NCBI GenBank assembly: GCA_965221125.1
Contig: CBDCRW010000005.1
Coordinates: 64,001 to 128,000, forward strand
Origin: Alphaproteobacteria bacterium
GTDB taxonomy: Bacteria; Pseudomonadota; Alphaproteobacteria; UBA828
Direction of reading: 5' to 3'
DNA: 64,000 nt
The notes under the pieces are model-generated. The model made no database searches. It saw nothing but the letters and a program-made list of their open reading frames with translations, and was not told where the DNA came from. This document shows positions 1,267-61,301 of this stretch, in pieces (positions within the stretch are counted from its first letter, which is position 1; the number at the start of each line of letters is the position of its first letter). The position numbers and the translations under genes were made by a program.

Positions 1267-1686
1267 ATGAGCTTCGGGATGAACAGGGCTGAGCTCATCG
1301 GACGCTTGGGCGCCGATGCGACCATCACCAATCTCACGTCCGGCGGGCGCGTCGCCAATATGAGCGTGGCGACCGACGAGGGGTACATCGACAAGACCGG
1401 CGAGCGCGTCGATCGCGTGGAATGGCACAAGGCGGTGACCTTCCAGGACGGGCTCATCGGCATGCTCGAAAAGCACGCGAAGAAGGGTCGCCTGGTCTAC
1501 GTCAGCGGCAAGCTCCAGACGCGCAGGTGGCGGAAGGAGGGCGAGGACAGCGACCGCTTCTCCACCGAGATCCTGCTGGTGCCCGGTTCGCGGATCCAGT
1601 TCCTCGAGCGCACCAACGGCACCGCCGCCACCCAGGACGACCGCCGGCCGGCAGAAGCCGGCCATGCCTCCGATTCGCCGTTCTAG
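1267..1686 (+). CDS. ssb: Single-stranded DNA-binding protein
   Basis: MNRAELIGRLGAD...SVATDE...EWH...KKGRLVYVSGKLQTRRW, acidic tail ending SPF; AGGAG RBS before ATG 1267. Confidence 0.95.
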   Translation: MSFGMNRAELIGRLGADATITNLTSGGRVANMSVATDEGYIDKTGERVDRVEWHKAVTFQDGLIGMLEKHAKKGRLVYVSGKLQTRRWRKEGEDSDRFSTEILLVPGSRIQFLERTNGTAATQDDRRPAEAGHASDSPF

Positions 1687-2211: not shown

Positions 2212-3204
2212 GTGAGCGCCGCCGCTCGCGTCGCGGCCGCCCTCGGCGCACGCGCCGAGGAGGTGTGCCGCCGCTACCTCCCCCAAGGCCGCAAGCAGGG
2301 TCGATACTGGACCGCCGGCGACGTCTACGGCGCGCGGGGGCGGTCGCTCTTCGTCCGCCTGGCGCCCCCCGGCGTCCCGGGGAAGTGGACCGACGCGAGC
2401 AGCGGTCAGCACGGCGACCTGCTCGACCTCATTCGCATCTCTTCGGGCGCGGGCTCGCTCCGCGCAGCCCTCGCCGAGGCGCACGCGTTCCTCGCGTCGC
2501 CGCCCGTGCCGTCCTCCGCCATTTCCGAAGACTACGACCGCACCGAGGCGGCCCGCCGCCTCTGGCGCCGTTGCCGCGCCATCGACGGCACCCATGCCGA
2601 GGCCTACCTCGAGGCCCGCGGCATTGAGCGCTACCGCTTCGCGGCCCTGCGCTTCCATCCCGGCCTTTTCTACCGCGACGACGGCGGCGTGCGCCGCCTG
2701 CCGGCCCTGGTCGCGGCCGTCACCAGCTCCGACGAAGCCGTCTGCGGCGTGCTGCGAACGTGGTTGCACCCGACCAGGCCCGCCAAGGCGAATGTGAGTC
2801 GCCCGCGCAAGGCGCTCGGGCGCGTGCACGGCCATGCCGTCCGCTTCGGTGCTCCCGGCGCCGGCACGCTGCTGGTCGGCGAGGGGATCGAGACCGTGCT
2901 GTCCATCGTCACGGCCATCCCCGATACCGTCGCCGCCGCAGCGCTGTCCGCCGGCAGCCTCGGCGCATTCGCGCCGCCTGCCGGCGTCACGCGGCTGGTG
3001 ATCGCGCGCGACAACGACCCCGAGGGAGAGCGTGCCGCCGAGCGCCTCGCCCGGCGCTGCGCACGCGCGAGGGTCGCCGCACTGGTCGTCGCGCCCGAGC
3101 GCGATGACTTCAACAGCGATCTCGTCGCCCTCGGCGCGCCGGCGCTTCGCGCCAGACTCGCGCCGATCTTCCACCGCCGGGTCTGCGCCGGGGACCGGTG
3201 GTGA
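2212..3204 (+). CDS. Plasmid/ICE primase-like Toprim-domain protein
   Basis: Toprim motifs LLVGEGIET and LVIARDND, PERDDFNSDL; N-terminal GKWTD...HGDLLDLI typical of alphaproteobacterial mobile-element primases. GTG start inferred. Confidence 0.85.
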   Translation: MSAAARVAAALGARAEEVCRRYLPQGRKQGRYWTAGDVYGARGRSLFVRLAPPGVPGKWTDASSGQHGDLLDLIRISSGAGSLRAALAEAHAFLASPPVPSSAISEDYDRTEAARRLWRRCRAIDGTHAEAYLEARGIERYRFAALRFHPGLFYRDDGGVRRLPALVAAVTSSDEAVCGVLRTWLHPTRPAKANVSRPRKALGRVHGHAVRFGAPGAGTLLVGEGIETVLSIVTAIPDTVAAAALSAGSLGAFAPPAGVTRLVIARDNDPEGERAAERLARRCARARVAALVVAPERDDFNSDLVALGAPALRARLAPIFHRRVCAGDRW

Positions 3205-8165: not shown

Positions 8166-8344
8166 CTATCGGCCGAGCAGTCGATCCCGGGCAGCTCTGA
8201 TGTCTTCAAGGACTGGGCCGAGATTGTCGTGGCAGCGCCAAGCCGAAACGCGGAGAACTTCCCAGCCGCGCTGCCGGAGAATGTGATCGCGTCTGATGTC
8301 CTGGCGTCGGAGCTTACCTCGAACGTCGATGTGGTGATCGCCGT
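8166..8344 (-). pseudogene. Detached 3' end of the helicase-nuclease gene (DUF559/Vsr-like nuclease C-terminus)
   Basis: Removing 8345-12965 and one TSD restores ...VEIDG-DHHIDVRGKLRRQDIRRDHILRQRGWEVLRVSAW...LLGR-stop. Confidence 0.9.
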
Positions 8345-8713
8345 TGTTGTTTTCCGGTCTAGCCGGATAGAAGCACGGGTTTTTTTCTCACTTTGATTGG
8401 TTGGTGGATTTCCCGGGATGGTGGCCGAGTGCGGGAAGGACGCTGCCTGCGGCATTTTTTTGATCCTCAGCAGAATCCTCATTGCTGTTGAAGCTGTGGA
8501 GCGGTGGGCGCGAGATCGGCGAGTGTGGTCAGGCGGTGGGCAAGCGCCAGCTTGTCCACGGGCTGTCCACACGGTCCGCAGGACGCCGATCGGTCCGCAG
8601 GACGCGTCCACGGCTCCACAGCTTGGCGGCGGCGGGGAGCGTCCGTAATCTTGGCCTCTCACTGAACGACAAAGAGAGGCCCGGGGGACGGAACTCCCGC
8701 CGGGCCAGGGCCG

Positions 8714-9349
8714 GTGCAGCTTCGCTACGAAACGGGGCTCACCAGCGAGGAATACGTTAAGACCGAGGCGTGGCGCGACGCAAGGCTTGAGCGCTGCCCG
8801 AATCACCCGCACGGCGGATGTTCTGTGGCAAGCCACGGCACCTACGAGCGGAAGACCCCGCCCGGCGCAAGGGTTCCTCGCTGGTATTGCCGTGAGAGCC
8901 ATACGACCATCGGCCTGCTGGCCGACTGTCTGGCGGCGCGGCTGCCGGGCACGCTCGATGCGCTGGAAGCGGTTGTTGTCGTGGCGGAGGAGGCCGGCAG
9001 CCTGGAGGAGGCAGCGGACGAGGTGCGCTGCCCCGAGGACGAGGACGCCATCGAGCTTCCCGGCGCCGTGCGTTGGATCCGCCGCAGGCTGAAGCTTGTG
9101 CACGACGCGCTTGTGCGCGTCATCGGCCTGATCCCCGACCTGCTCGCGGGCTGCGCGCCCACCATGAGCGCGGTGCGCGAGCGTCTGAAGAGCGACAGCG
9201 CGTTGATGGAACTGCGCGGCCTGGTCGCCGGGCAGCTCCGGACGCTACCCGCGCCTCTGGGCTTCCAACCCCACGGCATCGACGTGGGGAATCGCAAACC
9301 GCAGTTCCAACAACGGGCGGGGCCGGACCCGCCGCCGGAGAGTTCGTAG
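8714..9349 (+). CDS. Transposon ORF1, Cys/His zinc-ribbon-like protein (DUF6431-like)
   Basis: CPNHPHGGC...HGTYERK...RWYCRESHTT motif; directly upstream of the transposase. Confidence 0.7.
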   Translation: MQLRYETGLTSEEYVKTEAWRDARLERCPNHPHGGCSVASHGTYERKTPPGARVPRWYCRESHTTIGLLADCLAARLPGTLDALEAVVVVAEEAGSLEEAADEVRCPEDEDAIELPGAVRWIRRRLKLVHDALVRVIGLIPDLLAGCAPTMSAVRERLKSDSALMELRGLVAGQLRTLPAPLGFQPHGIDVGNRKPQFQQRAGPDPPPESS

Positions 9350-9394
9350 CGTGACGATCCCGGGGCCAGGGAGTCCCTGAACGAGGATCGCACC

Positions 9395-10723
9395 ATGAAC
9401 AGCTCAGACGACGACCTTCGCCAACAGATCGCGCTCTTCCGATACGACGTCATCGCCGATCTGGTGCATCTGCCCGTGGGTGCACCGGGTGCCGGCGCGA
9501 TGATGCGCGCCAAAGCCGAGAAGACCTACACGATCCCCGGAACCACCAGGACCCGGGTCGCCGCCGAGACCATGCGGCGCTGGATCAAGGACTACCGCTA
9601 CGGCGGCTTCGACGCGCTCTACCCCAAGCCCCGCACCGACCGGGGGAAGCCCCGGCGGCTGCCGCCCGAGGTCGCCGAGCGCCTCATCGCGCTGAAGACC
9701 GAGAACGACGCATTGTCGGTTCGCGCCATCATCCAGAAGGTCAAGGAGGAGGGTATCGACCACCCGCTCGCCTCGTCCACCGTGCACCGCCTCTTCAGCC
9801 GCGAGGGCCTGTTCGACAAGAAGCCGCCCGACGGGGCGGATCGCCGCCGCTTCGCCTTCCGGCATGCCGGCGAGATGTGGATGAGCGACGTCATGCACGG
9901 ACCCAAGGTCCGGCACGGCCGAACCCGGCGCAAGACCTACCTGATCGCCTTCATCGACGACGCCACCCGCGTCATCCCGTTCGCCGCCTTCGCCATGGCG
10001 GAGAACACTGCGGCGTTCCTGCCGGTGTTCAAGGACGCGCTGATCCGGCGCGGCCTCCCGGCCCGCTTGTACGTCGACAACGGAAGCGCCTACCGCTCCC
10101 GTCATCTCTCCCTGGTCTGCGCCAGGCTCGGCGTTGCGTTGATTCACGCAAGGGCGTTCCAGCCAGCGGGAAAGGGTAAGATCGAGCGCTTCTTCCGCAC
10201 CCTCCGGGCCGGCTGGCTCCGCCACCTCGGCGATGACGTCGACAGCCTGGAGGCGCTCAACCGCAGCCTCTGGGCCTGGATCGAGGGGGAGTATCACAAC
10301 AGCCCGCATCGTGGCCTCGACGAGGGGCGCACCCCGCTTGAGCAGTGGGCGCTGGCCTCGGCCGGCGTGCGCTATCCCGACGCCACCATGGACCTCGACG
10401 ATCTGTTCCTCTTCGAGGCCAGGCGCCGTGTCTACAAGGACCGCACCGTTAGTCTGAACGGCCGCGTCTACGAGGTCGACGCCCTCCTGGTGGGTCAGAA
10501 CGTCATCCTGCGCTACGACCCGGCCGCGCCGCCCTCGCGCCCTCTCGACGTGGTCCATGACGGCAAGCCGGCCGGCAAGGCCAGCCCTCTCGACGCCTAC
10601 GCCAATACCGCCGTCAGGCGCACCTACCCGGCCAGGGAGATCGAGGCCGAAGATCCGGCGCCCGAGCCTCCGCCCTCGCCGCTGGCCATGCGCAACCTCA
10701 AGGACAAGAAGGAGGACGAGTGA
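9395..10723 (+). CDS. DDE transposase (rve core with Mu-transposase-like C-terminal domain)
   Basis: HTH region, WMSDVMHG, AFIDDATR, LYVDNGSAY, GKGKIERFF, YHNSPH, RRVYKDRTVSLNGRVYEV. Confidence 0.95.
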   Translation: MNSSDDDLRQQIALFRYDVIADLVHLPVGAPGAGAMMRAKAEKTYTIPGTTRTRVAAETMRRWIKDYRYGGFDALYPKPRTDRGKPRRLPPEVAERLIALKTENDALSVRAIIQKVKEEGIDHPLASSTVHRLFSREGLFDKKPPDGADRRRFAFRHAGEMWMSDVMHGPKVRHGRTRRKTYLIAFIDDATRVIPFAAFAMAENTAAFLPVFKDALIRRGLPARLYVDNGSAYRSRHLSLVCARLGVALIHARAFQPAGKGKIERFFRTLRAGWLRHLGDDVDSLEALNRSLWAWIEGEYHNSPHRGLDEGRTPLEQWALASAGVRYPDATMDLDDLFLFEARRRVYKDRTVSLNGRVYEVDALLVGQNVILRYDPAAPPSRPLDVVHDGKPAGKASPLDAYANTAVRRTYPAREIEAEDPAPEPPPSPLAMRNLKDKKEDE

Positions 10724-11523
10724 TGTACCTGCGCCACTTCGCCTTCACCCGCCTGCCCTTCGAGACCCCGGCAGAGACCGACGAGCTGTTCGAGTCCAAC
10801 GCGCGCCGCGAGGCCGAGGCCAGGCTCGGCCACCTCATCGACCTGCGCGGCATCGGCCTGCTCACCGGCGAGGTGGGCTCCGGCAAGACCACCGTGTGCC
10901 GGCATCTGACCGCGCAGCTTCATCCAGGCCTCTACCGGGTCCACTACGTCTCGCTGACCACGGGCAACGTGCTCGACATGTACAAGGCGATCGCGTGGGA
11001 GATCGGCCTGCCCATCGAGCGCTCCCGCGCCTCGGCCTATCAGGCCATCCGAAACGAGATCTCCCGCCTCGTCACCGAGGCCAAGCAGCTGCCGGTCCTC
11101 GTCATCGACGAGGCCCATCATCTGCGCAACGACGTCCTTGAGGACCTGCGCCTGCTCACCAACTTCGCCATGGATGCAGAGCAGCGCCTGTGCCTCGTCC
11201 TCGTCGGTCTGACCGAGCTCAGGCGCCGCCTGGCCATGGCCATGCACGAATCCCTCAGCCAGCGCCTCGTCGTCCGCCACCACCTGAGCGGTCTCGACCG
11301 CGACGAGGTCGACGCTTACATCAAGCACCGCCTCAGGCTCGCGGGATGCGAACTGCCGCTGTTCGAAGAGCCCGCCGTCGAGGCCCTGTTCCAGGGCGCG
11401 CGCGGCCTGCCGCGCCAGATCAACCGCATCGCCCACTACGCGCTCTCCGCCGCCGCTCTCGACGAGGCGAGGACCGTCAGTGCCGACCACCTGCAGCACG
11501 CGCTCGAGGAACTGCGGCCATGA
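10720..11523 (+). CDS. ExeA-like AAA+ ATPase (transposition helper)
   Basis: Walker A TGEVGSGKT, Walker B LVIDEAH, SLSQRL, GLPRQINR; overlaps the transposase stop. Confidence 0.92.
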   Translation: MMYLRHFAFTRLPFETPAETDELFESNARREAEARLGHLIDLRGIGLLTGEVGSGKTTVCRHLTAQLHPGLYRVHYVSLTTGNVLDMYKAIAWEIGLPIERSRASAYQAIRNEISRLVTEAKQLPVLVIDEAHHLRNDVLEDLRLLTNFAMDAEQRLCLVLVGLTELRRRLAMAMHESLSQRLVVRHHLSGLDRDEVDAYIKHRLRLAGCELPLFEEPAVEALFQGARGLPRQINRIAHYALSAAALDEARTVSADHLQHALEELRP

Positions 11524-12560
11524 CCGGCTTCCCGACCCGCGCCCCGATCGAGCTGGAGGAGCGGCCGCGCGAGCAGCAATGGCTGGTGGACACGCTATGG
11601 GGCGAGCAGGCCGTCGGCATCGTCGGCGGCGAGCCGAAGTGCGGCAAGTCCATCCTGGCGCTGGACCTCGCGGTCGCAGTCGCCGCCGGCGTCCCATGCC
11701 TGCGGCACTTCGCCCCGGCCCGGCCTGGCCCGGTCCTGCTGTTCGCCGCAGAAGACGCCGGCCACCTCGTGCGCAAGCGCCTGCAGGGGATCGCCCGCGC
11801 CGCAGGCGCCCGCTTCGAGACCCTCGACATCGCCGTCATCGACGTGCCCACACTGCGCCTCGACCATCTCGACGACCGCCGCCGCCTGCAGCAGACCGTG
11901 GAGCGCATCGCACCGCGCCTCGTGGTCCTCGACCCCCTGGTCCGCCTGCACGGCGTGGACGAGAACACGGTTGCGGACGTCGCCCCGATCCTCGGCTTCC
12001 TGCGCGACCTGCAACGCCGCTTCGAGACCGCCGTCCTCCTCGTCCACCACGCCCGCAAGAGCGGGGCCACGAGGCCGGGGCAGGCCCTGCGGGGCAGCAG
12101 TGAGCTGCACGCCTGGGGGGACTCGAACCTCTACCTGCGCCGCCGGGACCGGCAGACCCTCATGACCGTCGAGCATCGCGCCGCACGCGGTCTCGACGAC
12201 ATCGAGATCGAGCTCAAGGAAGACGGAGAGGAGCCCTCCTTCCGGCTGCGCCAGCCGCCCACGGCCGGCGGCGGGGCGCCTCAGCCCGAAACACCCGAAT
12301 GCCGCGTTCTCAAGGCGCTCGCCGACGCCGGGGCGCCGCTCTCGCAACGCCAGATCCGGGAACGCGCCGCGACCCGGCACAAGACCGTCGGCGTAATCTT
12401 GCAAAAGCTCGTCCAGGAGGGTCGCGTCGCGCGCAACGCCGAGGGCGGCTACAGCGTCGTCGCAGGCGCAGCGGACAAGCGGGCGGCGGCCGCCGCCGCC
12501 AACGGCAGCAGTCGGCCGCAGGCCCCGCGGTTCCCGGAGCCCGGTTCCGCCAACGCCTAG
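11520..12560 (+). CDS. RepA-like (AAA_25, RecA-fold) helicase with C-terminal winged HTH
   Basis: WLVDTLW, GGEPKCGKS, FAAED, LVVLDPL, DEN, LVHHARK, LRGSSELHAWGD; ATGA overlap with the ATPase gene. Confidence 0.88.
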   Translation: MTGFPTRAPIELEERPREQQWLVDTLWGEQAVGIVGGEPKCGKSILALDLAVAVAAGVPCLRHFAPARPGPVLLFAAEDAGHLVRKRLQGIARAAGARFETLDIAVIDVPTLRLDHLDDRRRLQQTVERIAPRLVVLDPLVRLHGVDENTVADVAPILGFLRDLQRRFETAVLLVHHARKSGATRPGQALRGSSELHAWGDSNLYLRRRDRQTLMTVEHRAARGLDDIEIELKEDGEEPSFRLRQPPTAGGGAPQPETPECRVLKALADAGAPLSQRQIRERAATRHKTVGVILQKLVQEGRVARNAEGGYSVVAGAADKRAAAAAANGSSRPQAPRFPEPGSANA

Positions 12561-12965
12561 GGGTTCGAGCCGGAACCGCCGTCGGGAACCACCCTTCCCC
12601 AACGGTCCGGAAGGCGCTGCGCCTCCACCGGGATACTACGTCAGGTGAGCGGCCAGTCCGTGGCCGGAAGCTTGCTTCAGGCCATGGCAGCACTTCGTCG
12701 TGTGGACGGTGGCGAGTCACCCGAAGGGCCGAAGCGAAGCGCAGGAGCGGCGCAGCCGCTTGACGCGCCGACGGCCGCGCGACACCTCGTCAGCTCTCCT
12801 CAAGCACCAGTCCAAACCTCAATCAGACAGCGACCCCGGACCGCCCGCAGAGACCATGAGCTCCTACGCTTCGATCCGGAAAAGACCGAGCAATCTGGGA
12901 AATCAGGGCAGCGATCACGTCAAATAATCTGGGAGATTCGGCGTCAAATAACGTGCGAAACAACA

Positions 12966-15900
12966 GCCGTCGATCTCGACGTTGAGCTTGATCCCTTCGT
13001 CGAGCAGCGCGAAGTCCAGTTCATAGCCGGCGACATTGAGTTTGGCGTAGGGCTTGAGGCCGGAGTCCCTCATGCCCTCGAAAACAAGTTTCTCTGCCCG
13101 ACTGTCCACCCGGAAGTTAGAGATGGCGGAAGGCGTTTGCTGCTTCGCCGCTACTTCGTTGCGCAGATAGGCTCGGAGCGAACCCAGCGTGGGTATGCCG
13201 AGCTGATCGATTTCCGGGTGTCCAATTACGATGAGGGATCGCCGGGCGCGGCTGACGGCTACATTGATTAGATTCTTCGTGTCCTCGATCCAGAGGCGGT
13301 TGCGATGGCTCATATCGGGGGAAACCACGCAGGATATGACGATGGCGTCCCGCTCGTTGCCTTGATAGCTGTGCGCGGTCGCGGAGAGGAAGCCAGCTTC
13401 GCACAAGGCGTCGCGTGAAATCCTTGCACGCGCCAAGCGCTTGATGCGGTCTGCTTGTCCGCGGAACGGAGTGACAACGCCAACGGTGAGATCGGATCGG
13501 ACGAGATGGGTGAGATGGCGGACGACTTCTTCCGCCTCAGCCGGGTTGCACCAGCTCTCGCCGTTGTCGCCTCGCTCGCACTCACCGGCTACGTCTTTCC
13601 AGAGAATTGAGTGATCCGCGTCTTCGACATCGGTCAGGACGGTCAATTCGTCGTTGTAGAAGGTGCGATTGAACCATCGGGCGATCTGCGGATGGCAGCG
13701 GTAATGCTCGTCCAGGAGAACTGGGGGATTGGAATCGCCGACGCAGTAAGCGAAGGCGAGATAGGCCGACCCATCCTTGTGGTGCAGGTTTCGGTCGCGC
13801 AAGCCGTCATTGTCGAATCCTGTCTCCTCAGCAATTTTCTTGAGCACGTTGTCCCCAACTCGCACGATCGGCTGCAGTTGAGAGGGGTCCCCGATCACCG
13901 CCAAGCGTTTGGCACGGTACGCCAGGGGAAGTACCGCGGCGAGCGTGCATTGACTCGCTTCGTCGAGGATCACGAGGTCGAAGAGGCCGCTTTCCCTCGG
14001 GAAATTCGACCCCGTGGAAAGCGCGGTACAGGCCCAGCCCTGTATGGTGCCGAGTGTGGAGGCGATCATCCCTCGCAGCGCTTTAGCGCTTGCCGCTGTG
14101 CGCGAAAAGCGCGCGAGCTCACTGGATTGGGAATCAAACTTCATTGCGACGTGCTGGCGAACGGCGTTGTAGCTGATCTCAGCCCACTTTTGGTTGAGCG
14201 CAGGCACCGCCGTTGTCACGTCACCAACGGAGTTCTCGATTCGAGCGCACGTCTGCTTGAGCTCTTCGATTTCCCGGGTGAGTGACGACCGCTCCTGTTC
14301 GAGCCGGGCCCAGGTATGGATAGCGCTGATGGGTGCTGAATGAAGGCAGCGGATATTCTTGCGAAGCCGGCGACTGCGGAACCGCCCTAGGAATCGTGCA
14401 TTAAGCAATCGATCGGCCCGATCCTCGATGCGTAGAGGATCGCGTCGCGCGACGGGAGGCGCCTCGAGGTGCCAGACTCGCCGTGCCACGTTGTTCAACT
14501 GGTCTTGGACGGTTTCGAGCTTGTGCGCGAGCGCCAAGAGCTCCCCTTCAGCGGCGTTCAGTCGCTCGAGGTCTGCAAACAACCCGGCCCGTTGGCCCGC
14601 GATTTTGCTCAAGGCGTCGGAGGAGCTGGGGGGCCTGGCCACGATGGGGGTTGCTGCGCAACGCGCGTCGCTGATGCGGCCAAGCACATCCTCCCGAGCT
14701 TTGCGATTTCCGGTTCGGATAAGGAGCCCGCTGAAAACGCGCTCGACCGCGCGGTCCACCGCGACATCGACGGCAGCGTTGTTGGTGGACGTGACGAGAA
14801 CCTTCTCCCCGTCGAGCCAAGCATTGCACACGGCGTTTACGACGAGCTCGGTCTTTCCCGTCCCAGGCGGCCCGGTAATGATCGTCAGAGGATGCGCGCG
14901 AATACGCTGGAGCGCATGTTCCTGGGATTGATTGCACAGAAGTGGGGCCGCGAGGGGTGTTGATGGCGAGGCAGCGCCGACAACCGCTTTCGGTGCGGCG
15001 CGGATCAGGTGAGCAGCCGCGCTCGACATCCAGTCATCGCAGTTTTTAATCTTTTCCAGCTCCTTGATGAGGCTGGTGTAGTAACTGGTCGCCGAAGCGT
15101 AAGCCGATATTGCCGCGTTATAGACGCCTTCATGGCTTTGGATGTGATCGCTGAGAGCCGCCGGCTCGAGCGGAGCGTGTATGGCGAGGCCGATCAGTTC
15201 CGCTACCTTGGTCGCGCAGTTCGCACAAGCGTCCTGGTCTCCGAAAGGCCAACCGGTGCCAAGAAGATCGCCGACCTGCTGAGTAATGGAGTCTTCGAAT
15301 GCGCCGCTCCCGACGATGGCCTGGTTGAATTCGGGCTCGGTGGCAGCTTGGAGCCGCCATTCTCCGTCGGCGTTCCGATCGGCTTCAATCTGTACATAGA
15401 AGAGTGGAGCCACGCGTAGACGCCTGTCGTCTTTGAATACCAGCGTGGGCCATCCGTACAGCAGCGACGCTTTCTGGGGCGATTCGGACGATGAGGCCAG
15501 ACTGGTGGCGAGCTGTGCGGGGGCGCGGACGGTATTGGTATGTCCGACTATCAGTTGTTCGGAACCGGTATGGCAGAACCAGGAGCGAGCCTTGGCTTCG
15601 AAGGTTACGAGCGACTGGGCGGCTTCCGCCTGTACGCATCTTCGAGCGTAGCTGCAGAGTCGGCGCCAATCGTCTTGCGGCGACTGGTCGACTCCGGTGG
15701 GCTCTGCAGAACTGTCATCTGTCTCAGTCGATTCCGGTTGGGCTAAACAGGGTCGGCGGGTTGAGTGGTCGACCGGGCTTTCCCGAGGGCGCGATTGGAC
15801 GGGTCCAGGGACGGACTCAGAAATTGATCGCCGTCGAGTCACCAATTTTCTTGTCAAGTGTATGACGATGGCAATGACCACAACAAAAATCAGGAATGGC

Positions 15901-16019
15901 AGGGGGTCGGCGAGCACGGCCAACGAGGCTCCCTGATCGAAGTCTGGCACGAGAGGGTCTCGCAATTCGGGAACGACGGGCTTCGGTTTTGGAAGCGGCA
16001 CTGTCGTGTCATCTGCCAT
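12966..16019 (-). pseudogene. SF1 (DNA2/NAM7/UPF1-like) helicase fused to DUF559-like nuclease, with N-terminal TM helix; interrupted by the transposon
   Basis: ITGPPGTGKT, STNNAAVD, ILDEASQ, IGDPSQLQP, EHYRCHP, TPFRGQ, AHSYQGNERD, NVAVSRAR, YELDFAL..LNVEIDG; hydrophobic LPFLIFVVVIAIVIHL. Reconstructed length 1075 aa from ATG 16019. Confidence 0.9.
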
Positions 16020-16175
16020 GCGAATCTTCTGTATATGGTGCTGATCCAGCTTCGCGATCTTGAACGGTGCAGGACCAAGTGAGCGGGGGCAAGACCTACC
16101 CAGCATCGCACCGAAGGGGGTGAGCCAAGACCGTGACGCAGCGGCGCGCGCCTGAGAGCGGCAGGGGAGAGAGGC

Positions 16176-54389: not shown

Positions 54390-55014
54390 ATGGCGATTCG
54401 CGACGCGTCTGCCGCGGCACACCTCTCGCTGGTCGAGGGGTCTGACGGTCCATGGTCTTTTCCTCCTGATAATCCGTCCTCCGAAGAGCCGGACTGGCGA
54501 TCCCTGTCCGAGCGGGCGCACGCCCGTGCGGAGAGCGAGGGGGCGCGGGCAGACGCGGCTGAAGCGCGCATCCAGGAACTGCTCGGCGATATCCGTCGGC
54601 TCCGCGCTTCTTTGCGCAAAACGGGAGCAGCCGGAAGTACGGGGGAGCCGCTGCCGAGGGGTGCCCGTGGAGCGCACAAAGCGCCGCGAAGATTGCGACG
54701 GAACGACACCATCGGCTCGCTGCATGTGGAGAACGCCGAACTGCGCGAGGAGGCCACAACGCTGCGCAAGGCGGCGGGTGCGGCACAGACGTCGCTCTCC
54801 AGGAAAGACGCCCGGCTGCTCAAGGCCCGGGAACGTTCGCAGGCCCAAAGGAGCACGATCGAGGAGCTGCGCCGGCAGGTCCGTTCCCTGGAAAGGCAGG
54901 TCGCCCGGCAGAGCCGCGACCTGGAGGAGGCGGAAAGCCGCAGGCAGACTATCCGTGATCTCTCCCGCGAGAACGCGGAACTCCGTGGAGCACTCAGGGA
55001 TTGGCGCGACCAGG
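54390..55014 (+). pseudogene. IS66 transposase, N-terminal coiled-coil part (interrupted)
   Basis: Removing 55015-59635 and one TSD joins ...RDWRDQ-EATIEWFDGRVSELE... in frame to MEADLADR at 59721. Confidence 0.88.
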
Positions 55015-55383
55015 TGTTGTTTTCCGGTCTAGCCGGATAGAAGCACGGGTTTTTTTCTCACTTTGATTGGTTGGTGGATTTCCCGGGATGGTGGCCGAGT
55101 GCGGGAAGGACGCTGCCTGCGGCATTTTTTTGATCCTCAGCAGAATCCTCATTGCTGTTGAAGCTGTGGAGCGGTGGGCGCGAGATCGGCGAGTGTGGTC
55201 AGGCGGTGGGCAAGCGCCAGCTTGTCCACGGGCTGTCCACACGGTCCGCAGGACGCCGATCGGTCCGCAGGACGCGTCCACGGCTCCACAGCTTGGCGGC
55301 GGCGGGGAGCGTCCGTAATCTTGGCCTCTCACTGAACGACAAAGAGAGGCCCGGGGGACGGAACTCCCGCCGGGCCAGGGCCG

Positions 55384-56019
55384 GTGCAGCTTCGCTACGA
55401 AACGGGGCTCACCAGCGAGGAATACGTTAAGACCGAGGCGTGGCGCGACGCAAGGCTTGAGCGCTGCCCGAATCACCCGCACGGCGGATGTTCTGTGGCA
55501 AGCCACGGCACCTACGAGCGGAAGACCCCGCCCGGCGCAAGGGTTCCTCGCTGGTATTGCCGTGAGAGCCATACGACCATCGGCCTGCTGGCCGACTGTC
55601 TGGCGGCGCGGCTGCCGGGCACGCTCGATGCGCTGGAAGCGGTTGTTGTCGTGGCGGAGGAGGCCGGCAGCCTGGAGGAGGCAGCGGACGAGGTGCGCTG
55701 CCCCGAGGACGAGGACGCCATCGAGCTTCCCGGCGCCGTGCGTTGGATCCGCCGCAGGCTGAAGCTTGTGCACGACGCGCTTGTGCGCGTCATCGGCCTG
55801 ATCCCCGACCTGCTCGCGGGCTGCGCGCCCACCATGAGCGCGGTGCGCGAGCGTCTGAAGAGCGACAGCGCGTTGATGGAACTGCGCGGCCTGGTCGCCG
55901 GGCAGCTCCGGACGCTACCCGCGCCTCTGGGCTTCCAACCCCACGGCATCGACGTGGGGAATCGCAAACCGCAGTTCCAACAACGGGCGGGGCCGGACCC
56001 GCCGCCGGAGAGTTCGTAG
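55384..56019 (+). CDS. Transposon ORF1, zinc-ribbon-like (copy 2)
   Basis: Same translation as 8714-9349. Confidence 0.7.
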   Translation: MQLRYETGLTSEEYVKTEAWRDARLERCPNHPHGGCSVASHGTYERKTPPGARVPRWYCRESHTTIGLLADCLAARLPGTLDALEAVVVVAEEAGSLEEAADEVRCPEDEDAIELPGAVRWIRRRLKLVHDALVRVIGLIPDLLAGCAPTMSAVRERLKSDSALMELRGLVAGQLRTLPAPLGFQPHGIDVGNRKPQFQQRAGPDPPPESS

Positions 56020-56064
56020 CGTGACGATCCCGGGGCCAGGGAGTCCCTGAACGAGGATCGCACC

Positions 56065-57393
56065 ATGAACAGCTCAGACGACGACCTTCGCCAACAGATC
56101 GCGCTCTTCCGATACGACGTCATCGCCGATCTGGTGCATCTGCCCGTGGGTGCACCGGGTGCCGGCGCGATGATGCGCGCCAAAGCCGAGAAGACCTACA
56201 CGATCCCCGGAACCACCAGGACCCGGGTCGCCGCCGAGACCATGCGGCGCTGGATCAAGGACTACCGCTACGGCGGCTTCGACGCGCTCTACCCCAAGCC
56301 CCGCACCGACCGGGGGAAGCCCCGGCGGCTGCCGCCCGAGGTCGCCGAGCGCCTCATCGCGCTGAAGACCGAGAACGACGCATTGTCGGTTCGCGCCATC
56401 ATCCAGAAGGTCAAGGAGGAGGGTATCGACCACCCGCTCGCCTCGTCCACCGTGCACCGCCTCTTCAGCCGCGAGGGCCTGTTCGACAAGAAGCCGCCCG
56501 ACGGGGCGGATCGCCGCCGCTTCGCCTTCCGGCATGCCGGCGAGATGTGGATGAGCGACGTCATGCACGGACCCAAGGTCCGGCACGGCCGAACCCGGCG
56601 CAAGACCTACCTGATCGCCTTCATCGACGACGCCACCCGCGTCATCCCGTTCGCCGCCTTCGCCATGGCGGAGAACACTGCGGCGTTCCTGCCGGTGTTC
56701 AAGGACGCGCTGATCCGGCGCGGCCTCCCGGCCCGCTTGTACGTCGACAACGGAAGCGCCTACCGCTCCCGTCATCTCTCCCTGGTCTGCGCCAGGCTCG
56801 GCGTTGCGTTGATTCACGCAAGGGCGTTCCAGCCAGCGGGAAAGGGTAAGATCGAGCGCTTCTTCCGCACCCTCCGGGCCGGCTGGCTCCGCCACCTCGG
56901 CGATGACGTCGACAGCCTGGAGGCGCTCAACCGCAGCCTCTGGGCCTGGATCGAGGGGGAGTATCACAACAGCCCGCATCGTGGCCTCGACGAGGGGCGC
57001 ACCCCGCTTGAGCAGTGGGCGCTGGCCTCGGCCGGCGTGCGCTATCCCGACGCCACCATGGACCTCGACGATCTGTTCCTCTTCGAGGCCAGGCGCCGTG
57101 TCTACAAGGACCGCACCGTTAGTCTGAACGGCCGCGTCTACGAGGTCGACGCCCTCCTGGTGGGTCAGAACGTCATCCTGCGCTACGACCCGGCCGCGCC
57201 GCCCTCGCGCCCTCTCGACGTGGTCCATGACGGCAAGCCGGCCGGCAAGGCCAGCCCTCTCGACGCCTACGCCAATACCGCCGTCAGGCGCACCTACCCG
57301 GCCAGGGAGATCGAGGCCGAAGATCCGGCGCCCGAGCCTCCGCCCTCGCCGCTGGCCATGCGCAACCTCAAGGACAAGAAGGAGGACGAGTGA
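56065..57393 (+). CDS. DDE transposase (copy 2)
   Basis: Same translation as 9395-10723. Confidence 0.95.
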   Translation: MNSSDDDLRQQIALFRYDVIADLVHLPVGAPGAGAMMRAKAEKTYTIPGTTRTRVAAETMRRWIKDYRYGGFDALYPKPRTDRGKPRRLPPEVAERLIALKTENDALSVRAIIQKVKEEGIDHPLASSTVHRLFSREGLFDKKPPDGADRRRFAFRHAGEMWMSDVMHGPKVRHGRTRRKTYLIAFIDDATRVIPFAAFAMAENTAAFLPVFKDALIRRGLPARLYVDNGSAYRSRHLSLVCARLGVALIHARAFQPAGKGKIERFFRTLRAGWLRHLGDDVDSLEALNRSLWAWIEGEYHNSPHRGLDEGRTPLEQWALASAGVRYPDATMDLDDLFLFEARRRVYKDRTVSLNGRVYEVDALLVGQNVILRYDPAAPPSRPLDVVHDGKPAGKASPLDAYANTAVRRTYPAREIEAEDPAPEPPPSPLAMRNLKDKKEDE

Positions 57394-58193
57394 TGTACCT
57401 GCGCCACTTCGCCTTCACCCGCCTGCCCTTCGAGACCCCGGCAGAGACCGACGAGCTGTTCGAGTCCAACGCGCGCCGCGAGGCCGAGGCCAGGCTCGGC
57501 CACCTCATCGACCTGCGCGGCATCGGCCTGCTCACCGGCGAGGTGGGCTCCGGCAAGACCACCGTGTGCCGGCATCTGACCGCGCAGCTTCATCCAGGCC
57601 TCTACCGGGTCCACTACGTCTCGCTGACCACGGGCAACGTGCTCGACATGTACAAGGCGATCGCGTGGGAGATCGGCCTGCCCATCGAGCGCTCCCGCGC
57701 CTCGGCCTATCAGGCCATCCGAAACGAGATCTCCCGCCTCGTCACCGAGGCCAAGCAGCTGCCGGTCCTCGTCATCGACGAGGCCCATCATCTGCGCAAC
57801 GACGTCCTTGAGGACCTGCGCCTGCTCACCAACTTCGCCATGGATGCAGAGCAGCGCCTGTGCCTCGTCCTCGTCGGTCTGACCGAGCTCAGGCGCCGCC
57901 TGGCCATGGCCATGCACGAATCCCTCAGCCAGCGCCTCGTCGTCCGCCACCACCTGAGCGGTCTCGACCGCGACGAGGTCGACGCTTACATCAAGCACCG
58001 CCTCAGGCTCGCGGGATGCGAACTGCCGCTGTTCGAAGAGCCCGCCGTCGAGGCCCTGTTCCAGGGCGCGCGCGGCCTGCCGCGCCAGATCAACCGCATC
58101 GCCCACTACGCGCTCTCCGCCGCCGCTCTCGACGAGGCGAGGACCGTCAGTGCCGACCACCTGCAGCACGCGCTCGAGGAACTGCGGCCATGA
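57390..58193 (+). CDS. ExeA-like AAA+ ATPase (copy 2)
   Basis: Same translation as 10720-11523. Confidence 0.92.
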   Translation: MMYLRHFAFTRLPFETPAETDELFESNARREAEARLGHLIDLRGIGLLTGEVGSGKTTVCRHLTAQLHPGLYRVHYVSLTTGNVLDMYKAIAWEIGLPIERSRASAYQAIRNEISRLVTEAKQLPVLVIDEAHHLRNDVLEDLRLLTNFAMDAEQRLCLVLVGLTELRRRLAMAMHESLSQRLVVRHHLSGLDRDEVDAYIKHRLRLAGCELPLFEEPAVEALFQGARGLPRQINRIAHYALSAAALDEARTVSADHLQHALEELRP

Positions 58194-59230
58194 CCGGCTT
58201 CCCGACCCGCGCCCCGATCGAGCTGGAGGAGCGGCCGCGCGAGCAGCAATGGCTGGTGGACACGCTATGGGGCGAGCAGGCCGTCGGCATCGTCGGCGGC
58301 GAGCCGAAGTGCGGCAAGTCCATCCTGGCGCTGGACCTCGCGGTCGCAGTCGCCGCCGGCGTCCCATGCCTGCGGCACTTCGCCCCGGCCCGGCCTGGCC
58401 CGGTCCTGCTGTTCGCCGCAGAAGACGCCGGCCACCTCGTGCGCAAGCGCCTGCAGGGGATCGCCCGCGCCGCAGGCGCCCGCTTCGAGACCCTCGACAT
58501 CGCCGTCATCGACGTGCCCACACTGCGCCTCGACCATCTCGACGACCGCCGCCGCCTGCAGCAGACCGTGGAGCGCATCGCACCGCGCCTCGTGGTCCTC
58601 GACCCCCTGGTCCGCCTGCACGGCGTGGACGAGAACACGGTTGCGGACGTCGCCCCGATCCTCGGCTTCCTGCGCGACCTGCAACGCCGCTTCGAGACCG
58701 CCGTCCTCCTCGTCCACCACGCCCGCAAGAGCGGGGCCACGAGGCCGGGGCAGGCCCTGCGGGGCAGCAGTGAGCTGCACGCCTGGGGGGACTCGAACCT
58801 CTACCTGCGCCGCCGGGACCGGCAGACCCTCATGACCGTCGAGCATCGCGCCGCACGCGGTCTCGACGACATCGAGATCGAGCTCAAGGAAGACGGAGAG
58901 GAGCCCTCCTTCCGGCTGCGCCAGCCGCCCACGGCCGGCGGCGGGGCGCCTCAGCCCGAAACACCCGAATGCCGCGTTCTCAAGGCGCTCGCCGACGCCG
59001 GGGCGCCGCTCTCGCAACGCCAGATCCGGGAACGCGCCGCGACCCGGCACAAGACCGTCGGCGTAATCTTGCAAAAGCTCGTCCAGGAGGGTCGCGTCGC
59101 GCGCAACGCCGAGGGCGGCTACAGCGTCGTCGCAGGCGCAGCGGACAAGCGGGCGGCGGCCGCCGCCGCCAACGGCAGCAGTCGGCCGCAGGCCCCGCGG
59201 TTCCCGGAGCCCGGTTCCGCCAACGCCTAG
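58190..59230 (+). CDS. RepA-like AAA_25 helicase with HTH (copy 2)
   Basis: Same translation as 11520-12560. Confidence 0.88.
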   Translation: MTGFPTRAPIELEERPREQQWLVDTLWGEQAVGIVGGEPKCGKSILALDLAVAVAAGVPCLRHFAPARPGPVLLFAAEDAGHLVRKRLQGIARAAGARFETLDIAVIDVPTLRLDHLDDRRRLQQTVERIAPRLVVLDPLVRLHGVDENTVADVAPILGFLRDLQRRFETAVLLVHHARKSGATRPGQALRGSSELHAWGDSNLYLRRRDRQTLMTVEHRAARGLDDIEIELKEDGEEPSFRLRQPPTAGGGAPQPETPECRVLKALADAGAPLSQRQIRERAATRHKTVGVILQKLVQEGRVARNAEGGYSVVAGAADKRAAAAAANGSSRPQAPRFPEPGSANA

Positions 59231-59635
59231 GGGTTCGAGCCGGAACCGCCGTCGGGAACCACCCTTCCCCAACGGTCCGGAAGGCGCTGCGCCTCCACCG
59301 GGATACTACGTCAGGTGAGCGGCCAGTCCGTGGCCGGAAGCTTGCTTCAGGCCATGGCAGCACTTCGTCGTGTGGACGGTGGCGAGTCACCCGAAGGGCC
59401 GAAGCGAAGCGCAGGAGCGGCGCAGCCGCTTGACGCGCCGACGGCCGCGCGACACCTCGTCAGCTCTCCTCAAGCACCAGTCCAAACCTCAATCAGACAG
59501 CGACCCCGGACCGCCCGCAGAGACCATGAGCTCCTACGCTTCGATCCGGAAAAGACCGAGCAATCTGGGAAATCAGGGCAGCGATCACGTCAAATAATCT
59601 GGGAGATTCGGCGTCAAATAACGTGCGAAACAACA

Positions 59636-61301
59636 CCAGGAGGCCACCATCGAATGGTTCGACGGCCGCGTCAGCGAGCTGGAATGTGCCCTGGACGAGG
59701 CCGCAGACGAGAGGCGGTGGATGGAGGCCGATCTTGCCGATCGCCCTCTGTTGCCCGTGGCCTTCGAACGACTGCGCACCCAGGAGAAGACGATCCAATC
59801 GCTCACCGAGAAGATCCAGTCCCTCTCCGAGAAAAACGAGCGGTTGCGGGCCCGGATCACGGACCTGGAGGCGACGGTTGCCAGGCACCGTGCGAGCAGG
59901 GCCGTGCTGTCCAAGGCACTGTTCGGCAGCAAGAGCGAGCAGCAGGAGAAGCCCAGCACGGGGCGCAAGCGCGGCCAGCAGCGCGGCGCTCCCGGCCACG
60001 GCCGTACCCCGCGGCCCGGGCTCGAGGAGCGCACCGACAAGCGCAACCCGCCCAAGGACGCGCGCGCGTGCTCCTGTTGCGGCAAGCCCTATGTCGCCAA
60101 CGGCGAGCACGTCTCGACCATCATCGAGATCGAGGTCAAGGCCCACAAACGCAGGATCGTCCGCCCCCGCTGGCGCCGGGGTTGCGACTGCCCGTCCTCG
60201 CCCCTGGAAGTGACGGCGCCCCCGCCGCTGCGCCTGTTCCCCAGGACACCCTACGGAACCAGCGTGTGGGCGAGCTTCCTCTACGAGCGCTACGCCTCTC
60301 TGCGGCCCCTCAGCCAGGTCTCCGCGTGGCTGTCCGGCCTCGGTCTGCCGATCGCTGCCGGCACCCTCGCCGGCAGCGTGGAGCGCTTCATTCCTGTGTT
60401 CGAGCCCGTGGCGGACGCGATCCTCGCGCACCAGAACCAACAGGCGGTCCGTCACGGCGACGAGACCGGCTGGCGTATCCAGTCGCTGCGCGAGATCGGC
60501 CGCTCCAACCGCGCGTGGCTGTGGAACTCGGTCAGCGAGGATGCGGTCTACTTCCACTGCGACCCCTCGCGCTCGGCCGAGGCCGCGAAGACGTTGTTCG
60601 GCGATACCGCCGTCGTCGTGTTCGTGGTCTGCGACCGCCTCTCCAGCTACAAGAAGATGGCGCGCGACCTCGACGGCAAGGTGATCCTCTGCTTCTGCTG
60701 GGTCCATCAACGGCGGGACTTCATCCAATGCGCGGCCAGCCACAATCGGCTGACGGACTGGTGCCAGAGTTGGATCGAGCGCATCGCCTCGATCTACAGC
60801 CTGAACAAGGCGCGGCTGCGGCATTACGACCCCGCTCTGGAGCGCCAGACGCCACAGTTCGACGCCGCACAGAGAGAGTTGGAGAAGGCCGTCGACAAGC
60901 TGTTCGCGGACGCAAAAGCGGAACTGGCCGGCCTGCCGGCCGGCTCGCGCGAGGCCAAGCCGCTGCGCTCGCTGCTCAACCACCGCGAGGGGTTGTGCGT
61001 CTTCGTCGACAACCCGCAGGTGCCCATGGACAATAACGCTGCCGAGCGGGCGTTCAGGAAAGCGGTCATAGGACGACGCCTCAGCTTCGGATCCGACAGC
61101 GAGGACGGCGCGAAGTTCACGGCAATCATGTACTCCGTCGTCGGCACCCTCGCCATGAACGGCATCGATGTCCGGCGCTGGCTGGAGGCATGGCTGAAGA
61201 CCTGCGCGAAGAATGGCGGCAAACCGCCGGACGACTTGTCGCCCTGGCTGCCGTGGTCGATGAGCGAGAAGCGAAGGCGCAAGTTCACGGCGCCGGGATG
61301 A
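59636..61301 (+). pseudogene. IS66 TnpC transposase, C-terminal part
   Basis: LFGSKSE, RGQQRGAPGHGR, CSCCG, HGDETGW, VCDR, CWVHQRRDF, DNNAAERAFR..V.GRR.SFG. Confidence 0.92.

Follow-up and report, generated by a model that had tools for sequence, protein, structure and literature searches.

What a transposon might gain from a helicase gene of its own is the question raised by a stretch of 64,000 nucleotides from an alphaproteobacterium of the lineage UBA828 (GenBank assembly GCA_965221125.1, contig CBDCRW010000005.1, positions 64,001 to 128,000 of the forward strand), which as a whole is referred to here as the window. It holds two copies of an element of 4621 bp, each with four genes, the last of which encodes a protein resembling the helicase RepA. 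A preliminary description, made from the letters of the window, regarded this helicase as a core component of the element and did not recognise the architecture as that of a named family. By sequence comparison with its relatives, the fourth gene is shown to be an accessory, laterally exchanged cassette and not core machinery, and the element a DDE transposon that is autonomous and belongs to the Tn6049 superfamily, with a lineage of its own (F1) and a variable fourth slot. To our knowledge, the handover of branched intermediates to the replisome by replicative and copy-out transposons has been well worked out only for phage Mu.

The helicase gene as an exchangeable cassette

The open reading frames (ORFs) and the cassette are given for the first copy, in window positions, with protein lengths in amino acids (aa):

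8714-9349, plus strand: ORF1, 211 aa, GTG start, Zn-ribbon-like and distantly DUF6431-like; core gene
9395-10723, plus strand: ORF2, 442 aa, DDE transposase with HTH_32, rve and Mu-transpos_C above the Pfam cut-offs; core gene
10720-11523, plus strand: ORF3, 267 aa, AAA_22 ATPase (ExeA/TniB/MuB-like), its start overlapping the ORF2 stop; core gene
11520-12560, plus strand: ORF4, 346 aa, predicted RepA/DnaB-like RecA-fold helicase core of superfamily 4 (SF4) type with a C-terminal winged helix-turn-helix (wHTH), its ATG overlapping the ORF3 stop
11520-12789, plus strand: exchangeable cassette of about 1.27 kb, comprising the helicase gene and the downstream structured motif, with sharp homology limits
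12654-12785, plus strand: conserved structured motif, non-coding and some 130 nt in length, which forms several stems and lies about 95 nt downstream of ORF4

Relatives were gathered by similarity of the transposase, which yielded 79 loci, all with the core ORF1-ORF2-ORF3. A second set of elements among the loci studied forms the true Tn6049 lineage, with TGAGCGCGCG-type ends (F2). Nucleotide homology between the element and six F2 loci is confined to element positions 3177/3182 to 4436/4445, where it amounts to 74-76%, and this block runs from the start codon of the helicase gene to the end of the downstream motif (about 11520-12789 in the window). The helicases are 74% identical across the two lineages, where the transposases share only 26% and the ATPases 27%, a difference that speaks against a core gene. 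Metagenomes queried with ORF4 gave the same pattern: helicases with 65-81% identity to ORF4 follow F2 transposases and ATPases whose identity to those of this element is just 25-31%.

Relatives without the helicase complete the picture. The locus L030, 3677 bp long, has the same ends as this element, down to the lineage-specific right end, and a core of 86% identity; the place of the helicase is taken by an ORF of 73 aa whose start overlaps the stop codon of the ATPase gene. In a tree of F1 transposases with 47 distinct rows the helicase occurs in 13 of 17 crown rows and in none of the 30 deeper ones; the nearest clade has it in all 11 rows, and the crown rows lacking it (L030, L032, L045 and L046, in the sister clade) have, like the deeper rows, kept the same ends and core. 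At least three gains or losses are needed on this tree, on which helicase-less L030 is sister to helicase-bearing L119, and its metagenome rows are biased towards presence because they were fetched with the helicase as query. By its own account, the core-component claim was to fall if close relatives with the same ends usually lacked the helicase, and this is the case across the family, though not in the nearest clade.

The helicase tree places 14 of the 16 F1-labelled rows in one clade (support 98/98) nested among F2 helicases, the exceptions being L137 and the row of L048, a neighbouring element of a third lineage. A single F2 helicase clade is not rejected by the approximately unbiased (AU) test (p 0.228), which leaves the direction of transfer unsettled by the helicase tree, so F1 as the recipient depends on the crown-only distribution. 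This distribution suggests that the cassette was acquired by F1; the partner in the exchange is F2, which occurs in the same host genus. In two other genomes (L087:9021-11033, minus strand; L153:1650-5347) an F2 helicase element lies beside or inside the tail of an F1 helicase element, and such a side-by-side position could favour cassette exchange. The third, more distant lineage at L048:8215-11089 (minus strand), with DDE and AAA proteins of 27% and 32% identity, has an AAA_25 helicase of 45% identity in the same position, which points to an association of helicase and slot older than the exchange between F1 and F2.

Mobility, ends and core genes

The two copies in the window (8345-12965 and 55015-59635) are exactly 4621 bp long and identical base for base, with the match ending sharply at both borders. 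Their outer features are:

8340-8344 and 12966-12970, no strand: target-site duplication of copy 1, GCCGT on both sides
8345-8713, plus strand: left end, made up of the terminus TGTTGTTT, a GGATTTCCCGGGAT site in subterminal position (about 8405-8420) and an untranslated leader
12790-12965, plus strand: lineage-specific right end with repeats of AATCTGGGA and CGTCAAATAA and terminal AAACAACA
12892-12900 and 12926-12934, plus strand: right-end repeat AATCTGGGA
12918-12927 and 12942-12951, plus strand: right-end repeat CGTCAAATAA
55015-59635, plus strand: copy 2, every feature of copy 1 shifted by +46670
55010-55014 and 59636-59640, no strand: target-site duplication of copy 2, CCAGG

The duplications are independent, and each copy splits a gene, both as first described: excision of copy 1 in silico restores a minus-strand frame of 1136 aa, and copy 2 sits in a plus-strand frame of 764 aa with a coding-like G+C content at third codon positions (GC3) of 0.85. 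The gene interrupted by copy 1 (12915-16106, minus strand, continuing to the left of 8345; about 1136 aa) has a GPPGTGKT P-loop and looks by eye like an AAA_11/AAA_12-like helicase, with a GC3 below what is usual for the genome.

The whole assembly (4.58 Mb, 7 contigs, here C1 to C7, 69% G+C) contains 20 copies of the element, 17 of them intact and all 100% identical, and three split by another insertion sequence (IS) of 1453 bp. Perfect 5-bp duplications flank 15 of the 20, and in three more, four of the five positions match. The remaining two form an inverted pair on contig 4 (C4:671960-676580, minus strand, and C4:716887-721507, plus strand) with about 40 kb between them and exchanged flanks (CGGGG, CCCTC); the exchanged pentamers point to an inversion of these 40 kb by homologous recombination between the copies. 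The pentamers duplicated at the 20 insertions reveal no sequence-specific target and at most a weak CCNGG-like preference; at least 11 of the insertion sites lie in coding-like frames, and the sites are spread over six of the seven contigs (C2-C7). Identical copies, duplications and scattered sites together mean that this is a genuine mobile element, one that has moved recently and without site specificity; a recent burst took it to 20 identical copies, in agreement with the active transposon that had been proposed. The second IS, which we take to resemble IS256, has 14 copies in the genome and makes 8-9-bp duplications; its terminal inverted repeats are imperfect, and the transposase it encodes measures about 409 aa. 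Three of its copies lie inside copies of this transposon near the ends of the latter (C7:271669-277750, C5:753863-759944 and C6:190502-196583).

Among 20 other species genomes of the same genus, the F1 transposase was detected in eight. In four of five genus genomes checked, helicase-bearing F1 copies number 30, 9, 3+1 and 1, and helicase-bearing F2 copies in these genomes about 34, 12+4 and 12; helicase-less F1 copies number 1 and 2. A link between helicase and copy number is only suggestive, the sample being small and the genomes non-independent. Public runs containing the element come from sponge, coral and marine metagenomes; the 24 listed consist of assembled contigs, and those of four were compared with the element. 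Contigs from RNA libraries contain pieces of it and gave no usable expression signal.

The termini are TGTTGTTT...AAACAACA. That the ends are asymmetric with an inverted repeat of only 8 bp is correct for the perfect repeat and has to be refined for the remainder, as GATTTCCCGGAT-like subterminal sites, conserved among relatives, occur at both ends (one left, two right). The internal right-end repeats, two of CGTCAAATAA and two of AATCTGGGA, were found as described. All ten left ends compared have conserved both the outermost 8-11 nt and the subterminal site.

The gene content agrees with the first account, from the Zn-ribbon pattern of ORF1 through the transposase and the AAA_22 protein to AAA_25 plus wHTH in ORF4, and so do the stop/start overlaps linking the last three genes (GTGATG for ORF2/ORF3, ATGA for ORF3/ORF4). 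In ORF1, residues C28/H31/C36/H41/C59 are conserved. No Pfam domain was found in it even at E 10, nor in any of its 1297 homologues. Its profile aligns (hhalign, 81% probability, E 1.2e-5) with a DUF6431 protein of the Cupriavidus necator plasmid pBB2, which precedes a related transposase. The ORF1 model (predicted local distance difference test, pLDDT, 78) had no Foldseek match in the PDB at E<=0.001, and fold comparison by VIA-align, which served also as the look for TniQ, reached Z<=4.8 for an HTH-like part at residues 79-169 only.

ORF2 scores 41.9 for rve (cut-off 32.6) and 31.6 for Mu-transpos_C (cut-off 21.7), its best NCBIfam model is that of IS481, and D165, D228 and E264 are kept in at least 97% of 72 related transposases. 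ORF3 matches AAA_22 with 95 bits, is ExeA/pepcterm-ATPase-like and has weak similarity to TniB and TnsC; within the set A5 no variation occurs at Walker A (G50-K56) or at Walker B (D130/E131). A scan for promoters and terminators returned none of the former and two of the latter, against 2.3 expected. Resolvase, TnsA, TniQ and Cas genes, reported absent before, were likewise not detected in Pfam, NCBIfam and PADLOC scans.

The fourth slot and its possible role in replication

Whatever gene fills the fourth slot, its start coincides with the stop codon of the ATPase gene or is no more than a few bases away. Among the 79 loci the occupants are distributed as follows:

helicase: 8 loci, 6 genomes
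DUF3991+Toprim_2 protein of about 300 aa: 14 loci, 9 genomes
small acidic protein (about 65-100 aa) marked by a characteristic tail: 28 loci, 20 genomes
other, unclear or none: 17 loci
not assessable: 12 loci

The small acidic proteins of the nearest helicase-less siblings end in QL[PSA]LFPELD[TIHN]PF (QLPLFPELDTPF, QLSLFPELDIPF, QLALFPELDHPF and QLALFPELDNPF), and other tails read DDDLPF, DDELPF, FDDIPF and EQDPF; the 71-aa protein of Tn6049 ends in ADNDF and that of C. necator in ELDLPF. The consensus for binding the beta clamp is QL[SD]LF, and the tail QLxLF...D-x-PF looks like such a motif joined to the tail of a protein that binds single-stranded DNA (an SSB), though the class was picked by a regular expression of our own and its reading as peptide motifs rests on short patterns. 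The SSBs of the genome itself end in DDEIPF, TIPF, EIPF and similar. An excerpt of PMC5872125 describes the C-terminal hexapeptide DDDIPF of SSB as a conserved docking site for partners in replication and repair. Altogether 16 SSB-family matches occur in the genome, one of them inside the window (1279-1578, equal to C5:65279-65578); groups of five and of three among them have identical scores, which suggests other multicopy mobile elements carrying SSB genes.

In the present element the slot is taken by ORF4, with an AAA_25 domain (9.4e-37, 127 bits) followed by a MarR-type wHTH (MarR_2). Its sole match among PDB sequences is RepA of RSF1010 (1g8y, 9.6e-10), and its model (pLDDT 89, predicted template modelling score, pTM, 0.77) retrieved with Foldseek DnaB-family helicases and RepA 1g8y (target-normalised template modelling score, TMt, 0.73), with RadA, Rad51 paralogues and KaiC lower. 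Residues K43, E78, D138, R191 and R220, presumably supplying the Walker A lysine, catalytic glutamate, Walker B aspartate and arginine finger, are invariant in 71 diverse relatives. ORF4 thus has the features of a RepA/DnaB-type (SF4) RecA-like helicase core, for which a hexameric ring and 5'-3' unwinding would be expected. ORF4-like proteins are plentiful in metagenome assemblies (478 clusters at 50% identity, E<=1e-30), and in species-representative genomes of the class they are found in 3 of 400 as weak matches. A predicted protein of 597 aa (P0004) fuses AAA_22 and AAA_25, which could reflect read-through in gene calling or a natural fusion of ATPase and helicase.

The second part of the cassette is the structured motif. 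Its nucleotide identity across F1 and F2 is 80-91%, in some pairs exceeding the conservation of the adjacent protein. Its consensus fold consists of eight helices with 42 pairs in all, seven of which show compensatory changes, and 96.6% of cells are paired; none of 500 shuffles reached the observed values and slid controls attained 24-46% paired, though these statistics are flattered, the fold having been deduced from that very alignment. Folding energy is -66.3 kcal/mol (z -2.25) for the plus strand and -59 (z -1.16) for the minus strand, and G-U intermediates far outnumber A-C ones; the better plus-strand fold and the G-U excess point to the helicase-sense strand, be it as RNA or as single-stranded DNA. 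In the genome, a covariance model of the motif picks out the 20 copies of the element and nothing else; in 46 other sources it gives 22 matches, each downstream of a helicase gene. No Rfam family matches the motif; the only match at E<=1, to RF04220 (E 0.89) at 8506-8589, is a chance one. An integron cassette or attC-like site was considered and set aside, since the sequence itself and not structure alone is strongly conserved and an integrase is lacking; small ORFs inside the tail were discounted in view of a 23-nt insertion in the alignment and the lack of 3-nt periodicity. At L126:5783-7614, in one F2 variant, a DUF3991+Toprim gene comes after the helicase and an NYN+LOTUS gene after that; the NYN gene probably lies outside the element because copy homology ends near L126:6732-6751.

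A Toprim protein, a small protein with a clamp/SSB-like tail and a helicase as occupants of one position led us to read the fourth slot as a replication-coupling module, filled here by an element helicase that would be loaded through its wHTH at a structured site, a reading to which we give a little less than an even chance. The preliminary description's idea that the helicase may load replication at the strand-transfer intermediate gains indirect support from these other occupants. Transposition would leave a branched intermediate that needs replication, either a Mu-type strand-transfer product or a figure-eight of the IS481/IS3 type (copy-out-paste-in), and replication would be recruited there by a protein whose translation is coupled to that of the AAA+ ATPase. 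In relatives the coupling would be done by the small acidic protein with its clamp- and SSB-like tail or by the Toprim primase-like protein. The present element would instead bring a replicative helicase of its own, loaded through the wHTH at the structured site that was transferred along with it and lies close to the right end, and forks would then be assembled without the host loaders.

Several observations weigh against this reading. Replication, circles and cointegrates are without direct evidence, contigs of public runs being the only material, and no end-to-end junction of the element was present in contigs of the four runs. Most relatives, the 30 deeper rows among them, manage without the helicase, and helicase-less relatives elsewhere are also multicopy (six loci in one genome, four in another). 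A primase is lacking in the element, ATPases that are not helicases (KaiC, RadA, Rad51 paralogues) share the AAA_25/RecA fold and occur among the fold matches, and the short patterns behind the tails and the AU result count on the same side. The motif is missing from the helicase-bearing L115, L138/139 and L142/143, and in L126/127/129 a Toprim gene follows the helicase where it would be, losses which imply that it is not indispensable.

Instead of serving replication, the slot protein might act, like TnsE of Tn7, as a selector that steers the AAA+ ATPase, and hence insertion, to replication forks or gapped DNA; the clamp/SSB-like tails, the Toprim protein and the helicase would then be different means of recognising forks. 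The slot lies directly behind a TnsC/TniB/MuB-like ATPase and is translationally coupled to it, the small proteins have clamp-binding-like tails, and the 20 insertions share no specific target beyond the weak CCNGG-like preference. TnsE itself binds the beta clamp and thereby links transposition to the replisome. According to an excerpt of PMC4549789, many IS transposases bind the clamp as well. However, the insertions are not biased in orientation with respect to local GC skew (12 co-oriented, 8 anti-oriented; a weak test because the skews are small), the coding-like frames and six contigs among the sites do not favour selection of this kind, and an ATP-driven helicase with its own cis element exceeds what a selector needs. 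We consider target selection unlikely.

A second alternative separates the helicase and the motif from transposition altogether and makes them a passenger or selfish cassette, be it cargo for defence, anti-defence or repair or a hitchhiker that spreads by means of the transposon ends. Such a unit may be dispensable, as the helicase is in most relatives, where it was gained, lost and swapped; sharp limits fit a unit that moves independently, and the slot is the place where Tn7-like and Tn402-like elements hold their cargo. It speaks against a passenger that in both lineages, whose flanks are unrelated, the start of the helicase gene invariably overlaps the stop of the ATPase gene, that the other occupants are also replication-type proteins, that the cassette has no recombinase and ORF4, like ORF1, no PADLOC match, and that high-copy elements in the genus are mostly helicase-bearing (20, 30, 9, 34 and 12 against 1-2, in a small, non-independent sample); we judge it to be quite improbable.

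The joint movement of a DNA-binding helicase gene and an adjoining structured site is also reminiscent of a Rep protein with its origin, and the pair could serve as initiator and origin for an excised circle, the second alternative of the preliminary description. The closest solved structure by sequence, RSF1010 RepA, is a plasmid replicative helicase, and a Toprim gene follows the helicase in F2 relatives. This free replicon is nevertheless very doubtful: no circular junction was seen in the public-run contigs, a plasmid collection gave neither a megablast match to the element nor a tblastn match to ORF4, the element has no primase or initiator, the motif is deleted in some helicase-bearing copies, and all 20 copies are integrated with duplications. 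Finally, an indispensable helicase defining a new four-gene family, in spite of its presence in all 11 rows of the nearest clade and its translational coupling, is contradicted by L030, L032, L045 and L046, by the 30 deeper rows and by a cassette held in common with F2, and is next to impossible.

Returning to the replication-coupling module, we would extend it to the whole superfamily as a tentative conjecture, which has perhaps one chance in three of being right: Tn6049-like elements may keep a coupled 'replisome interface' slot, filled by a docking-peptide protein, a Toprim primase or a self-loading SF4 helicase, and helicase cassettes with a loading site or non-coding RNA of about 130 nt, of a class that Rfam lacks, may move between lineages as cis-trans units, so that forks would be built on the transposition intermediates with the element's own parts. 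The family offers a comparative series: one core occurs with a clamp/SSB-tail-like adaptor, a primase-like protein or a helicase plus cis site, in some cases in a single genus, and copy numbers of 9-34 per genome have been reached by the forms with a helicase. It would also account for part of the very large unannotated population of AAA_25 'AAA family ATPase' genes in metagenomes, and for annotation it shows that such genes and the conserved 130-nt motif mark transposon ends.

Relation to Tn6049 and other known systems

Tn6049 is a named, functionally uncharacterised transposon. In Cupriavidus metallidurans CH34 it is 3.5 kb long, has 12 copies and always carries a 'gspA' ATPase gene (excerpt of PMC2864759), and on plasmid pHS87a of Pseudomonas aeruginosa it was described with 12-bp inverted repeats reading TGTGCaTaAGCA and with a direct repeat of 4 bp (excerpt of PMC4739549). 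The copy on pMOL30 has ORFs for a 181-aa protein, an IS481-like transposase of 479 aa, an AAA ATPase of 277 aa and a 71-aa protein. The present element agrees with it in gene order (small ORF, IS481-like DDE transposase, ExeA/GspA-like ATPase, fourth ORF), in being multicopy and in homologous transposase (E 1e-26) and ATPase (E 1e-13). It differs in that these are only 26% and 28% identical and ORF1 has no detectable similarity, in its TGTTGTTT ends and 5-bp duplications against the TGTGCaTaAGCA and 4 bp published for pHS87a, in its 4.6 kb against 3.5 kb and in the helicase cassette where Tn6049 has the 71-aa protein. As F2 reaches 51% with Tn6049 in both transposase and ATPase, the 26-28% place this element in the separate lineage F1 of the superfamily; close membership fails on protein similarity, ends and duplication length. 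Hence the view that the architecture could not be recognised as that of a named family falls as regards gene order, which is that of Tn6049, and holds as regards identity and ends.

The earlier placement among the Mu/Tn7/Tn402/IS21 kind is sustained by TG..CA ends, by duplications of 5 bp, by the Mu-transpos_C domain of a DD35E transposase and by the AAA+ partner; rve plus Mu-transpos_C and these same traits are those of the Mu/Tn7/Tn552/Tn5053 transposase group. With phage Mu, Tn552 and Tn5053-Tn402 the element shares, moreover, several subterminal sites and the weak CCNGG-like target preference, but unlike them it has no resolvase, TniQ or phage genes, carries its own helicase and has a core that fits best with IS481. 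The strand-transfer intermediate of Mu needs host primosome assembly. Membership in Tn5053/Tn402 or Tn7 was rejected, TniB of Pfam scoring 20.8 (cut-off 22.4) and the four ORFs having no Pfam, NCBIfam or PADLOC match to TniQ/TnsD, TnsA or resolvase. The TnsE pathway of Tn7 is similar in its accessory protein behind an AAA+ regulator and, in the relatives, in small proteins with QLxLF-like tails; it is dissimilar in that no homologue of TnsA, TnsD or TnsE was found here, orientation bias is absent and the occupant is a helicase.

IS21 shares the DDE transposase with AAA+ helper and IS481 the closest DD35E core, yet ORF1 and the fourth slot are additions of this element, and it lies below both NCBIfam cut-offs: 43.1 bits against 160 for IS21, and 201.9 against 224 for IS481 (NF033577), from which Mu-transpos_C and the partner genes set it apart as well. 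RSF1010 RepA with its oriV/ssi is comparable in sequence and fold, in the catalytic residues kept and in a structured DNA or RNA element adjoining the gene; identity is about 19%, though, ORF4 has the extra C-terminal wHTH, and RepB primase and RepC initiator genes are lacking in what is a DDE transposon and not a plasmid. Casposons and Polintons resemble the element in concept only, as transposons bringing part of their own replication machinery, for theirs is a DNA polymerase together with Cas1 or a retroviral-type integrase. In the literature searched, to which ISfinder, TnCentral and the original 2009 description of Tn6049 did not belong, no helicase- or primase-bearing relatives, no slot and no motif of this kind were described. 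Added here to what is known of Tn6049 are a separate lineage, the exact limits of the cassette, its crown-only distribution and small proteins with clamp/SSB-like tails.

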